A stretch of 64,000 nucleotides of DNA from the NCBI GenBank assembly GCA_028279825.1, contig JANQNA010000008.1:35173-99172 (forward strand), in the 5' to 3' direction. The notes below the pieces were generated by a model. That model ran no database searches, was not told the DNA's origin, and saw only the letters and a program-made list of their open reading frames with translations. Positions within the stretch are counted from its first letter, which is position 1; every line of letters starts with the position of its first letter. This DNA comes from an archaeon. GTDB lineage: Archaea; Aenigmatarchaeota; Aenigmatarchaeia; GW2011-AR5. Both the position numbers and the translations under genes were made by a program. This document shows positions 3,296 through 47,976 of the stretch, piece by piece.

Positions 3296-4027
3296 ATGCT
3301 GGAAATAAGAGATTTGCATGTTGAAACAAACGGCAAAGAGATAATAAAAGGTCTTGATCTTGAGATAAAGAAAGGCGAGATACACGTGCTTATGGGTCCG
3401 AATGGATCGGGAAAAAGTACCTTGTCGTATGCATTAATGGGTCATCCGAAATACAAGATTACAAGGGGTGATGTTCTTTTTGAAGGTGAAAGTGTAAAGG
3501 ACCTGAGTCCTGATAAACGCTCAAAGCTTGGTATATTTCTTTCATTCCAGTATCCCATGGAAGTCCAGGGTGTCCAACTTTCAAATTTTATCAGACTGGC
3601 TACAGACAACAAAAACTTCCAGGAGTTCAGGGAAGATCTTAGCAACAATATGTCAATGCTGAAGATGGACAAGTCCTTCGGACAACGATATCTTAATGAC
3701 GGATTTTCCGGCGGTGAAAAGAAAAGAGGAGAAATTCTCCAGATGGCTATGCTTAAGCCTAAACTGGCCATACTGGATGAGACCGATTCCGGCCTGGATA
3801 TAGATGCACTGAAGACTGTGGCAGAAGGAATAAACACTGTCAACAAAAACGTGAATTCAGGTATACTCCTGATAACTCACTATCAGAGAATACTCAAGTT
3901 TGTGAAACCCGACTACGTTCACATAATCAGTGACGGGAAAATTGTCCAGACCGGTGGTGCAGATCTGGTGGACAAACTGGAAGAAGAAGGCTATGAGTGG
4001 GTGAGCAAGAATGGACATAAGAAGTGA
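3296..4027 (+). CDS. sufC: Fe-S cluster assembly ATPase SufC
   Basis: Walker [13 protein letters not shown] signature FSGGEKKR, Walker [13 protein letters not shown]; SufC-like N-terminus MLEIRDLHV. Confidence 0.9.
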
Positions 4028-5399
4028 TTATAAAGAGAAGTTTGGTTTTAACGTAAAGACAGATACTTTTCACGAGAAGAAAGGTTTATCGGAAAAAACA
4101 GTCAGGGAGATATCCGAGATAAAACAGGAACCTGAATGGATGACAAAGTACAGAACAGATGCGTTAAAGGTGTTTCTTAAGAAAAAAATGCCAAAGTGGG
4201 GAGCCAATCTTGAAAGCATTGATTTCGAGAAAATCATTTACTATCTAAGTGCTACAAAGAAGAAGGCAGCTACATGGGATGATGTACCTGCCGAAATCAA
4301 GAATACATTTGAGAAACTGGGAATACCGGAAGCCGAGAGAAAAATACTTGCCGGTGTCGAGGCTCAGTTTGATTCCGAGGTTGTTTACAGCAAGATACGG
4401 GAGGATTTAGAAAAACTGGGTGTTATATTCTGTTCCACCGATCAGGCACTGAAGGAACATCCCGAACTGTTCAAAAAATACTTTGGTACTGTTATACCGG
4501 CAGGGGACAACAAGTTTTCTGCACTCAACAGTGCTTTCTGGTCTGGCGGATCGTTTGTTTACGTGCCAAAAGGCGTTGAAGTTCCCATACCTCTGCAGGC
4601 TTACTTTAGAATAAATTCCAAAGATCTCGGCCAGTTTGAAAGAACACTTATCATAGCCGATGAAGGGAGTCGTGTACACTACATAGAGGGATGTACTGCG
4701 CCTATCTATTCATCGGACAGCCTTCATGCAGCTGTTGTTGAGGTGATTGCACTGCCTGGTGCACATGTTCGTTATACAACATTGCAGAACTGGTCAAATA
4801 ATGTTTACAATCTTGTCACGAAAAGGGCCCACGCACACAAAGATGCTATTGTTGAGTGGCTTGATGCAAACATTGGGAGTAAAATAACTATGAAATATCC
4901 AAGTGTTTATCTGCTTGGTGAGAATGCCAAAGCTGACATGATGTCTATAGCCTTTGCAGGTAAAGAGCAGTTACAGGACACAGGATCAAAGGCGGTACAC
5001 ATGGCAAAGAACACGAGCTCTTCCATAGTCAGCAAGTCCATCAGTAAAGACGGCGGCAGGACAATGTACAGAGGTCTTGTCAGAGTGAACAAGGGCTGCA
5101 AAGATTCAAAGTCAAACGTCCGGTGTGATGCTTTAATTCTGGATGAAAAATCCGCTTCCGATACCATTCCTTACATGGAGATAAACGAGAAGAAGGTTAA
5201 CATGGGGCATGAAGCAACCGTGGGCAAGATTGGCGAAGAGCAGCTCTTTTATCTACAGAGCCGTGGCCTAAGCGAGGCGGAAGCTGCTGCATTGATAGTG
5301 CGCGGTTTCTTTGACTGTTTCACAAAACAACTTCCACTGGAATATGCCGTAGAGTTTAATCGATTGATAGAAATGGAAATGGAAGGTAGTGTAGGATGA
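4011..5399 (+). CDS. sufB: Fe-S cluster assembly protein SufB
   Basis: 462 aa; conserved SufB blocks [34 protein letters not shown] and C-terminal beta-helix region; overlaps sufC end by 17 nt. Confidence 0.9.
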
Positions 5400-35064: not shown

Positions 35065-35174
35065 AATATCGATTTTCCGGAGTATATTTAACTATATATA
35101 TAACCTACGTACATAGTAGTAGCTGTAGAAAAATGTAATTTCTCTGTAATTCGTCGGTAGTAACGGTGACATAA

Positions 35175-46318: not shown

Positions 46319-46440
46319 TAAACCGCTCCCCTAAGATTGTTTAGAATTAGCATATTTATAGTTATAATACGATTTTTTGGCCACTTTGTTTGCATTCGAA
46401 CCCCAACATGTATTAATATTTTCTTAGACAAGACAACAGT

Positions 46441-47088
46441 ATGAATTTTAATATTAAGGATTTTATGACTACTGACTTCTCATATTGGATAGGGCTTGTT
46501 CAAAGTGATGGTGGATTGTGTAGATGGGAAAAAGATAAGAAAATTCGCTATAGATTAGACTTCAATAACACAAGTTTGTTGTTAGCAAAAAAATTTCAGC
46601 TAGGTACAAGATACTTCAATGCAAATGTCAAGATATATAAGTTCAGATCAAAGAGAAATCAATATAGTTGTCAGTTTGTTGTTAACTCTGTTATTGATAT
46701 CTTGAAAACAATGAATATTGTCTACAAAAGGAAGGATTTTATACCACCATATTGGATAATAGAAAATCCTAAGTTTTTTGGATCTTACTTGGCTGGTTTG
46801 ATAGATGGTGATGGTACTGTTAGCATAAAACGAAAAAAATACCCACAATGTAGAATTAGGATATTGTCTCCTGTTAGACAAAATAAATTATCAAATCTTA
46901 TTGGTAATTTCATGAAATGTAGTGCTTTTGTTTATGAGCATAATGCGGGCCATACAACTTGCCCCTGCTTAGAATTCTATGTGACACCTAAGAATTCTGC
47001 ATTTATTAAGACTTTTGTTTTACCATATTTGAATTTAAACTACAAAAAAACAATGATTAAGAGGTATATGAAAACAAGGGGACTATAG
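46441..47088 (+). CDS. LAGLIDADG homing endonuclease (double-motif)
   Basis: Second motif SYLAGLIDGDGTVSI is canonical; first motif degenerate (YWIGLVQSDGGL); last 10 nt incl. stop overlap the 5' end of tRNA-Trp. Confidence 0.65.
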   Translation: MNFNIKDFMTTDFSYWIGLVQSDGGLCRWEKDKKIRYRLDFNNTSLLLAKKFQLGTRYFNANVKIYKFRSKRNQYSCQFVVNSVIDILKTMNIVYKRKDFIPPYWIIENPKFFGSYLAGLIDGDGTVSIKRKKYPQCRIRILSPVRQNKLSNLIGNFMKCSAFVYEHNAGHTTCPCLEFYVTPKNSAFIKTFVLPYLNLNYKKTMIKRYMKTRGL

Positions 47089-47243
47089 TCTAACCAGGCA
47101 TGACGTCGCGCTCCAGCAAGGCTTTTCTTTCAAAAAGAAAATCCTTGAGGCAAAAGAAACTATTACAGTTGGAGCCTTGAGACGAGCGAAGCTCGTCTGT
47201 GAGAAGAAACGCGATGGTGGGGGTTCGAATCCCTCTGGTCCCA
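47079..47243 (+). tRNA. tRNA-Trp(CCA) with 92-nt intron at canonical 37/38 position (intron 47117..47208)
   Basis: Acceptor GGGACTA/TGGTCCC + A73; anticodon stem TCGCG/CGCGA; loop CU-CCA-G|intron|A; T-arm GGGGG-TTCGAAT-CCCTC. Folded by eye; D-arm is non-canonical (3 bp). Confidence 0.7.
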
Positions 47244-47244
47244 T

Positions 47245-47976
47245 TTATTTCCATATACCTTCAAAGAACTCTTTGTAATACTCATAATTCATTTTCGACT
47301 TTATCATGAATACAGTTGGTTTATCTTTCCAAATAACTGTCATGACGTGGTCTTTGAAAATGAATGTACCAATTGGTAGTTTTTGATCAGTAAATTTAAC
47401 TTTCATGTCCTTGTATATATGATTTTTCTTGACTATACTCTTCAATGATATGTGTGACAGTAACCTAACTTTGATCCCCTTTTCTAGCCTCTTTTTATGA
47501 TAATTCTTGAAAAAATTGATGACTCTCTTTTCTCCCAGCATTCCACCAAGCATGAATCCTTGATATTCCTCGCCTCTTTTCAGCGTACCTAGAATCAGAT
47601 TGAATGCTGATTTTACACCATCGTATGATTCATATACAGTTGCTTCTTGCTGTTCTCTAGTTAGCTTTCTTCGCTGTTCTATCTGTGGAATTAACTTCTC
47701 TTTTAGCTCTTTTTTCTGACTAATTATCTCTTTTTCTTTTTCATTTAGAATATCAACCAAGTTACTTGGATGTGAAGCACGGAAATGTTTTACGTTGTTC
47801 TTTACAACAAAACTGACGAGTCCCTTTTCTACTAGTTTGTCCAGGATTGAATATATCTTTGAATCTGTAATCCTCGCTCTTTCTATGATAGGCCCTACTG
47901 TACTACTCTCCAGTTCGAGTAGCGCAAAGTATACCTTTATCTCCGACTTATTCAGTATCTGTTCCAGTACGTCCAT
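47245..47976 (-). CDS. TrmB-family transcriptional regulator
   Basis: N-terminal TrmB wHTH (KVYFALLELESSTVGPIIERARITDSKIYSILDKLVEKGLVS) and C-terminal effector domain; 243 aa. Confidence 0.7.
   Translation of the reverse strand: MDVLEQILNKSEIKVYFALLELESSTVGPIIERARITDSKIYSILDKLVEKGLVSFVVKNNVKHFRASHPSNLVDILNEKEKEIISQKKELKEKLIPQIEQRRKLTREQQEATVYESYDGVKSAFNLILGTLKRGEEYQGFMLGGMLGEKRVINFFKNYHKKRLEKGIKVRLLSHISLKSIVKKNHIYKDMKVKFTDQKLPIGTFIFKDHVMTVIWKDKPTVFMIKSKMNYEYYKEFFEGIWK

Follow-up and report, generated by a model that had tools for sequence, protein, structure and literature searches.

The locus and its protein

The window analyzed here is a stretch of 64,000 nucleotides from an archaeon of the Aenigmatarchaeota (Aenigmatarchaeia; GW2011-AR5), namely positions 35,173 to 99,172 of the forward strand of contig JANQNA010000008.1 (assembly GCA_028279825.1). 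At its positions 46,441 to 47,243, an open reading frame (ORF) for a homing endonuclease (HE) of the LAGLIDADG type runs directly into a tRNA-Trp gene that carries an intron (Table 1). LAGLIDADG endonucleases cleave DNA site-specifically and leave 3' overhangs of 4 nt, and textbooks place the archaeal ones inside rRNA introns and inteins. The original prediction had described the gene as a double-motif LAGLIDADG enzyme, free-standing and yet physically joined to the intron-containing tRNA-Trp. This description stands. The coordinates of the ORF, its stop codon and the tRNA 5' end were all reproduced by the ORF list, Rfam and ARAGORN with introns allowed, the last two agreeing on the tRNA at 47079-47243 with its 92-nt intron. 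The ORF lies outside this intron and has its own ATG, both motifs are present, and the protein scores above the curated cut-offs of two Pfam models, with 29.8 bits for LAGLIDADG_1 (PF00961, cut-off 23.1) and 27.0 bits for LAGLIDADG_3 (PF14528, cut-off 22.5).

The AlphaFold2 model of the protein, based on 29 homologues, reached a predicted local distance difference test (pLDDT) of 94.7 and a predicted template modeling score (pTM) of 0.91, and consists of two alpha-beta-beta-alpha-beta-beta-alpha domains in a pseudo-dimeric fold. When the family profile was compared with the PDB, I-DmoI came first at 3.9e-11, followed by PI-PfuI, I-HjeMI, I-AniI and I-Tsp061I. Foldseek returned the same enzymes for the model, with a probability of 1.00 for I-DmoI, PI-PfuI and I-AniI, and the LAGLIDADG maturases bI3 and I-AniI were also among its structural matches. 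By sequence and fold together, the best solved structures are I-DmoI/E-DreI, PI-PfuI, I-AniI and I-Tsp061I. The window ORF is an intact gene for a monomeric, free-standing LAGLIDADG endonuclease, neither an intron ORF nor an intein ORF, and judged from its sequence the enzyme is probably active. Only one copy of the gene is present within the window, and its GC content (Table 1) is the lowest among the 41 long ORFs (window mean 41.7 +/- 3.9%).

A discrete family in DPANN archaea

The homologues of the window HE are stand-alone proteins of roughly 215-240 amino acids with 30-45% identity to it. An exhaustive profile search collected 127 clusters at E<=1e-30, after which the scores dropped sharply to generic LAGLIDADG proteins. 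Scanning one genome per prokaryotic species (185,579 genomes) gave 66 family loci, which belong almost only to DPANN lineages, mostly to metagenome-assembled genomes (MAGs) of Aenigmat-, Woese-, Nano-, Micr- and Iainarchaeota; several of these MAGs hold two copies at different loci. Across the family, the putative catalytic residues are strictly conserved (Asp23 in 64/64 aligned members, Asp124 in 65/65), a signature KKYPQC.IRI follows the second motif, and the C-terminus forms a [YH]K[KR] helix. By these features, the window HE is a typical member of a discrete DPANN family. NCBIfam holds no model for it, and the literature searched contained no paper connecting LAGLIDADG enzymes to DPANN phyla or to archaeal tRNA-flanking sites; the family is apparently undescribed. 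In two loci, a DUF87 (HerA-like) ATPase gene with an intein that contains LAGLIDADG_3 lies just upstream of the HE locus (L003 1-3525, L004 273-2678), which places two unrelated LAGLIDADG elements within 4 kb.

Adjacency to stable-RNA genes

Abutting stable-RNA genes is a property of the whole family, beyond what the original prediction could see. All counts refer to 65 family loci. ARAGORN placed a tRNA within 100 nt of an ORF end, or overlapping it, in 25/65 loci, while the distant flanks, by their tRNA density, predicted 1.9 (p ~6e-22). With 5S rRNA genes and manual calls included, the count rises to 35/65, and when this set is collapsed at 50% identity, every member is adjacent in 17/36 clusters (p ~6e-17). 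A relaxed detector, built on acceptor stem and T-loop, reported a tRNA-like gene at the ORF 3' end of 29/65 loci against 0.015 expected per locus, and two of its new calls were confirmed by Infernal at a permissive threshold. A confirmed RNA gene abuts or overlaps the ORF 3' end in 30/65 loci (26 tRNA, four 5S), with about one expected by chance. If probable calls are added, 36/65 abut at this end, and around six more loci have a tRNA only just upstream. The enrichment over the local tRNA density is 15-30 fold.

The abutting RNA genes comprise tRNAs of many identities as well as 5S rRNA, at either end and in either orientation. Applied to the loci without an ARAGORN call, Rfam detected further tRNAs and five 5S genes at the ORF 3' end (Table 1). 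The HE clades partly track the identity of the RNA, with groups for His, Arg-TCG, Pro-UGG and 5S, but related HEs are also found beside different tRNAs, and the nearest relatives of the window HE abut tRNA-Gly and tRNA-Val. A clean correspondence between clade and RNA identity was rejected, as the neighbor-joining tree gave a partial match only.

The junction itself follows a common pattern. In both orientations, the ORF enters the RNA gene approximately 10 amino acids past the conserved [YH]K[KR] motif, and a tRNA then provides the stop codon, either as UAG at nt 8-10 (window and L012) or as a TGA on the complementary strand of the T-loop (L001, L010, L050 and L056), which explains the recurrent protein tails ending in AGI. 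That the flush junction is a mechanistic need was ruled out by the orthologues L026, L042 and L046, in which tRNA-His lies 0, 14 and 165 nt downstream of the HE, respectively; it is best read as a product of genome compaction.

Some of the neighboring tRNAs are easily overlooked, since multi-intron tRNAs escape both ARAGORN with introns allowed and Rfam/Infernal (Table 1). One example is the tRNA-His of L026 with two introns, one after the anticodon and one in the T-loop. Gene callers extend ORFs through such tRNAs, as in a 137-aa 'Rpr2' call of L088 that starts inside tRNA-Pro. Other stable RNAs were seen at greater distance. In L021, an archaeal 16S rRNA gene (209-2616) is situated around 360 nt from a family HE gene and must hold large insertions or introns, because it spans 2408 nt against 1478 model positions. 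Signal recognition particle (SRP) RNA around 290 nt upstream and RNase P RNA 1.7-2.4 kb away (L061 2418-2692; L025 242-601; L026 2818-3163) are too few and too distant to judge whether the association extends to them.

Table 1. Coordinates of the features discussed, in the window (positions of the whole stretch) and at other loci (L numbers, positions of the respective locus).
Feature	Position	Strand	Remarks
Spacer between radical-SAM gene (divergent) and HE gene	46319-46440	+	122 nt, AT-rich
TATA-like TATTAATATTTT	about 46412-46422		presumed HE promoter, inferred from sequence
HE gene	46441-47088	+	215 aa, free-standing LAGLIDADG; ATG start, TAG stop 47086-47088; GC 30.4%
First motif YWIGLVQSDG	46483-46512	+	putative catalytic Asp23; from translation
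Second motif LAGLIDGDGT	46789-46818	+	putative catalytic Asp124; from sequence and translation
TATA-like TTTAAA / CTACAAAAAAAC	47034-47051	+	within last 18 HE codons; candidate tRNA-Trp promoter, inferred
tRNA-Trp(CCA)	47079-47243	+	anticodon 47113-47115; CCA not encoded
tRNA-Trp 5' exon	47079-47116	+	
tRNA-Trp intron	47117-47208	+	92 nt, position 37/38
tRNA-Trp 3' exon	47209-47243	+	
ORF/tRNA overlap	47079-47088	+	10 nt = tRNA nt 1-10; TAG stop = U8-A9-G10
Intron element GUUGGAGC then C-UUGA	47168-47180	+	antisense and D'-like box; GUUGGAGC at 47168-47175
TrmB-family helix-turn-helix gene	47245-47976	-	GC 34.6%; stop codon 1 nt from tRNA-Trp 3' end
5S rRNA genes	L024 3674-3789; L028 3674-3792; L036 767-884; L055 714-829; L071 3340-3476	opposite to HE	flush or overlapping
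Overlooked multi-intron tRNAs	L026 ~1118-1275; L046 ~3845 onward; L012 4669-4778; L016 3691-3796		L026 His; L012 and L016 Pro(UGG)
tRNA-Pro(UGG), HE-bearing loci	L012 4669-4778; L016 3691-3796; L003 4715-4816		compared with HE-less relatives
tRNA-Pro(UGG), HE-less relatives	L088 4322-4397; L090 4271-4347		compared with HE-bearing loci

The tRNA-Trp gene and the overlap

The tRNA-Trp gene is complete. Rfam model RF00005 matches from position 1 to 71 and scores 45.4 bits, where the gathering threshold is 29. ARAGORN with introns allowed (-i) calls the gene tRNA-Trp(cca) and places an intron of 92 nt behind position 37, i(37,92), while its default run overlooked the gene. The spliced tRNA of 73 nt folds into a cloverleaf at -30.0 kcal/mol. 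Since UAG at positions 8-10 corresponds to the Rfam tRNA consensus, any ORF that enters a tRNA in that frame stops at U8-A9-G10, and the 10-nt overlap is therefore unremarkable. As the tRNA has no non-coding 5' flank, its promoter must be located inside the HE coding sequence, where a TATA-like candidate was found. Furthermore, an RNase P cut at 47078/47079 of any HE read-through transcript would remove the HE stop codon.

The tight packing on tRNA-Trp is not peculiar to the HE, because a TrmB-like gene ends 1 nt away on the other side. The T-rich trailer of the tRNA falls inside the last codons of this gene, which with its own low GC content (Table 1) may share one low-GC patch with the HE. 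Besides the TrmB-family regulator, the window encodes PCNA, and these two genes together with the intron-containing tRNA mark the genome as archaeal. The named homologues of the radical-SAM protein encoded upstream belong mostly to DPANN and Altiarchaeota lineages.

The tRNA-Trp intron and the intron link

According to ARAGORN, the intron position 37/38 is the canonical one for archaeal bulge-helix-bulge (BHB) tRNA introns. Within the intron, GUUGGAGC is a perfect 8-nt antisense to nt 32-39 of the anticodon loop of the precursor and forms an 8-bp helix in the minimum free energy (MFE) fold. Downstream of the D'-like UUGA, a hairpin and then UGUGAGA, a possible C'-like element, follow. The tRNA-Trp intron of L035 from Micrarchaeia (2868-2980) reads UGGAGCG-CUGA-hairpin-GAUGAUA in a register that matches the window intron. 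Applying the N+5 rule by hand, both introns tentatively point to C34 and would direct its methylation, which suggests a reduced C'/D' guide similar to the euryarchaeal pre-tRNA-Trp box C/D intron. Canonical UGAUGA/CUGA boxes and a second guide were not found in the window intron, and the Rfam C/D families gave no match to it. A BHB motif, assessed by hand, forms three of four pairs in the central helix while the inner helix is not clear, so that a relaxed motif is possible; the BHB-constrained fold reaches -57.4 kcal/mol compared to -60.9 kcal/mol for the MFE fold. Because of the anticodon antisense and the D'-like box shared with L035, the intron looks like an ordinary, old, archaeal type.

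For the euryarchaeal intron, a box C/D guide for Cm34/Um39 is described (Clouet-d'Orval et al. 2001, as cited in PMC4033218 and PMC2584109). As far as these citing accounts go, both introns sit at 37/38, and in both the fifth nucleotide upstream of the D'-like box pairs with C34, whereas the window intron lacks the canonical C/D boxes and the second guide and has UUGA instead of CUGA as D' box.

Whether introns and HEs belong together was examined across the family, since an enzyme that targets the intron-less tRNA-Trp allele had been one of the two origins offered in the original prediction. Intron-sized tRNAs make up 19/29 of the adjacent genes and 21/32 of the background in the same contigs, and with ARAGORN, intron-containing tRNAs account for 12/27 and 24/36, respectively. 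With either of the two detectors, enrichment of introns at HE-adjacent tRNAs is absent, which leaves the suggestion unsupported at the family level. About a third of the adjacent tRNAs are intron-less (for example Gly in L001, His in L042, L049 and L056, and Arg in L050, L051, L070 and L072), and so are all adjacent 5S rRNA genes. A different picture emerged for tRNA-Pro(UGG), which carries two insertions in 3/3 HE-bearing loci and none in 2/2 HE-less relatives, although this comparison comprises five loci and is confounded by phylogeny. The insertions are located at D-arm, anticodon-loop or T-arm positions. The tRNA-Pro(GGG) of L012 also has a D-arm insertion, which its counterpart in L088 lacks.

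Mobility, selection and decay

An occupied and an empty site could be compared at the tRNA-Pro genes. In L012, the order is tRNA-Pro(GGG), HE, tRNA-Pro(UGG) and Rpr2-S19e. In the relative L088 (S19e 84% identical), these two tRNA-Pro genes are separated by a spacer of just 49 nt and no HE is present, and L090 (S19e 77% identical) carries a gene for a 159-aa methyltransferase (3751-4230) at this site. The spacer thus accepts different cargo. The L088 spacer (4273-4321) is similar to the final ~25 nt of the HE ORF in L012 (4640-4668), as seen in TTTATTAAGTAAAGATTTTGTA versus TTTATTTTAGAAAGATTTGTA. However, the local alignment score of 20 (shuffle p=0.044) is barely above that of other ORF windows, and the likeness could be fortuitous, stem from a tRNA promoter common to both, or be the scar of a deletion.

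In syntenic HE pairs, the ratio of nonsynonymous to synonymous substitution rates (dN/dS) of 0.10-0.22 indicates purifying selection. The identity of the HEs compared to that of their flanks is 79% vs 62-82% for L044/L047, 48% vs 35-62% for L001/L010 and 48% vs 53-84% for L024/L028. One copy, L071 beside a 5S gene, is frameshifted, with its N-terminal half in another frame. A patchy distribution, several sites and one decaying copy are the marks of a mobile HE, and all three are found in this family; the low GC content of the window HE and the frameshift of L071 may be read as foreign origin and decay, respectively.

For the window itself, the search for an empty site remained negative. An exact 30-nt tRNA-Trp exon pattern found no match in metagenome contigs, and the radical-SAM neighbor led to only a 23% relative there. 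In a set of 5.8 billion proteins, the best radical-SAM homologues were at most 56% identical and not syntenic. The neighboring proteins of the window had no exact match in the collection searched, and the HE is without an encoding contig on record.

Several other origins were considered and rejected. The T-arm-like GGGGTTCGAATGC (46394-46404, minus strand) raised the question of a tRNA remnant or a duplicated target ahead of the ORF, but this 11-nt match has an E-value of 1.9, is at chance level and is one of many such in the window. An integrated element with tRNA-Trp as attachment site was dismissed, as the neighboring ORFs include no integrase and the 3' part of the tRNA is unrepeated in the window. 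A viral origin was discarded with just three distant, partial matches in IMG/VR. At E<=1, Rfam found the tRNA as the only RNA around the ORF, and neither a group I intron nor another known RNA.

Interpretation and rival explanations

With only slightly more confidence than doubt, we favor an explanation in which a free-standing HE gene occupies the 5' flank of tRNA-Trp and spreads by intronless homing beside stable-RNA genes. The data establish the family and fold, the conserved catalytic residues, the adjacency, the purifying selection, one decayed copy and one occupied versus empty site; endonuclease activity, target and homing route are proposed, and might be as follows. An HE-less allele would be cleaved within a conserved RNA gene or close beside it, and when the break is repaired with an HE-bearing chromosome as template, the neighboring HE gene would be copied along by co-conversion. 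The allele of the enzyme itself would escape cleavage because it carries the HE insertion, or because it differs in sequence or by an intron. Compaction would have left the ORF without a spacer, ending at the first in-frame stop within the tRNA. We read the family as a long-lived selfish endonuclease that may exploit the flanks of conserved RNA genes. Four points weigh against this explanation. Around one-third of the loci have no adjacent RNA gene by the tools used. The RNA genes are diverse and occur in both orientations, so that no single junction sequence hints at a common target. The HEs diverge about as much as their flanks, and the long vertical persistence that this implies is not what one usually sees in a purely selfish HE; it would fit a host function too. 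Finally, an HE-less relative of the window genome was not found in the collections searched, so that mobility at this locus is presumed only.

The HE gene, be it active elsewhere or in decay, could also merely gather at tRNA and 5S genes because these form transcription units of their own and are the least harmful sites in very compact genomes, with the RNA gene being no target at all. This would fit an HE that touches the RNA gene at one end or the other and in both orientations, a spacing that drifts among orthologues, the TrmB-like gene packed equally tightly against the same tRNA, and the unrelated methyltransferase gene at the inter-tRNA site of L090. Nevertheless, we regard it as rather unlikely: members of an HE clade tend to lie at RNA genes of one identity, the enrichment exceeds the local tRNA density many times, and the invariant catalytic residues and a dN/dS of 0.1-0.2 would be left unexplained. 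Distinctly unlikely is collaborative homing, in which an intron-less tRNA-Trp would be cut near the intron site, the 92-nt intron would protect, and HE and tRNA would be co-inherited. A free-standing HE beside an intron-containing conserved gene does fit the reviewed scheme (PMC2988022), and so do the tRNA-Pro(UGG) insertions, present in the three HE-bearing loci and absent from the two HE-less ones. Yet the latter comparison is small and confounded by phylogeny, neither detector revealed an intron link at the family level, many adjacent tRNAs and all 5S genes are intron-less, and the tRNA-Trp intron at 37/38 with its anticodon antisense is of a widespread archaeal type.

A domesticated LAGLIDADG protein, which would bind DNA or regulate the neighboring RNA gene or act as a maturase-like RNA chaperone, would account for syntenic orthologues that diverge at a similar rate as flanking proteins of 50-80% identity across species, for the purifying selection, and for the maturases bI3 and I-AniI among the structural matches. 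We consider it quite improbable, since the distribution is patchy (66 loci in 185,579 species genomes), orthologous sites are empty in close relatives, one copy is frameshifted, paralogues lie at different RNA genes in some MAGs, the window copy has an atypically low GC content, and both catalytic Asp residues are strictly kept, unlike in typical domesticated derivatives. The other origin that the original prediction had offered, a relic of a mobile intron/HE rearrangement in which the ORF was displaced from an HE-containing tRNA-Trp intron or a split tRNA, is very improbable indeed. It would agree with the closest archaeal LAGLIDADG enzymes being intron- or intein-encoded (I-DmoI, I-Tsp061I and PI-PfuI). 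However, the tRNA fits the full model, the ORF, except for its last 10 nt, precedes the first nucleotide of the tRNA, no tRNA half, fragment or repeat flanks the ORF, no group I intron was detected by Rfam, an ORF inside the RNA gene was seen in 0/65 family loci, and the same geometry recurs at 5S rRNA genes.

The tRNA genes of DPANN lineages are unusually loaded with multiple and non-canonical introns. As an extension of intronless homing, LAGLIDADG enzymes that target stable-RNA genes from outside might represent a distinct archaeal strategy, whose pressure would add to this load because introns that break the recognition site would give immunity. The tRNA-Pro(UGG) insertions provide a hint in this direction, but as a whole we hold this idea to be unlikely.

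Implications

The overlap that drew attention to the locus is incidental. The main result is the DPANN family-wide abutment on tRNA and 5S genes, which was not found in the literature searched. Intronless homing has so far been mostly a phage phenomenon, and if the favored explanation is true, it would be extended to cellular archaeal chromosomes. Moreover, roughly 130 more compact natural meganucleases would become available, with highly conserved RNA genes as likely targets, and a candidate selective force on the tRNA gene architecture of DPANN archaea, concerning both introns and tight packing, would be at hand. The loci are also prone to mis-annotation, as NCBIfam has no name for the HE genes, ARAGORN and Infernal overlook the multi-intron tRNAs next to them, and ORFs are extended through tRNA genes.

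Comparison with known systems

By architecture, the window HE resembles I-DmoI, I-Tsp061I and the endonuclease domain of PI-PfuI, with two motifs in a chain of ~200 amino acids, the same double fold and the catalytic acidic residues. However, those enzymes are encoded within rRNA introns or inteins and cut the insertion site of the intron- or intein-less allele, whereas the window HE is located outside the RNA gene. The identity to them is only 15-18%, and the window family has its own KKYPQC.IRI signature and C-terminal [YH]K[KR] helix.

Free-standing HEs next to intron-containing conserved genes are known from F-CphI with the cyanophage psbA intron and from T4 mobE with the nrdB intron (PMC2988022; PMC6083498), and both intronless and collaborative or trans homing have been reviewed (PMC2988022). 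In those cases, the introns are self-splicing group I introns and cleavage at the insertion site was demonstrated, while the window intron, an archaeal tRNA intron, is spliced by proteins, and no statistical association with introns emerged for the family. In function, the known system nearest to the proposed mechanism is T4 SegB, a free-standing GIY-YIG HE in a tRNA gene cluster, whose site contains the TpsiC stem-loop sequence and which drives the co-inheritance of itself and the neighboring tRNA genes (PMC2330249). SegB is a phage enzyme of the GIY-YIG type with demonstrated cleavage and homing, whereas the window HE belongs to the LAGLIDADG type and is cellular, and its cleavage and homing are predicted; what both have in common is a free-standing HE gene among tRNA genes.

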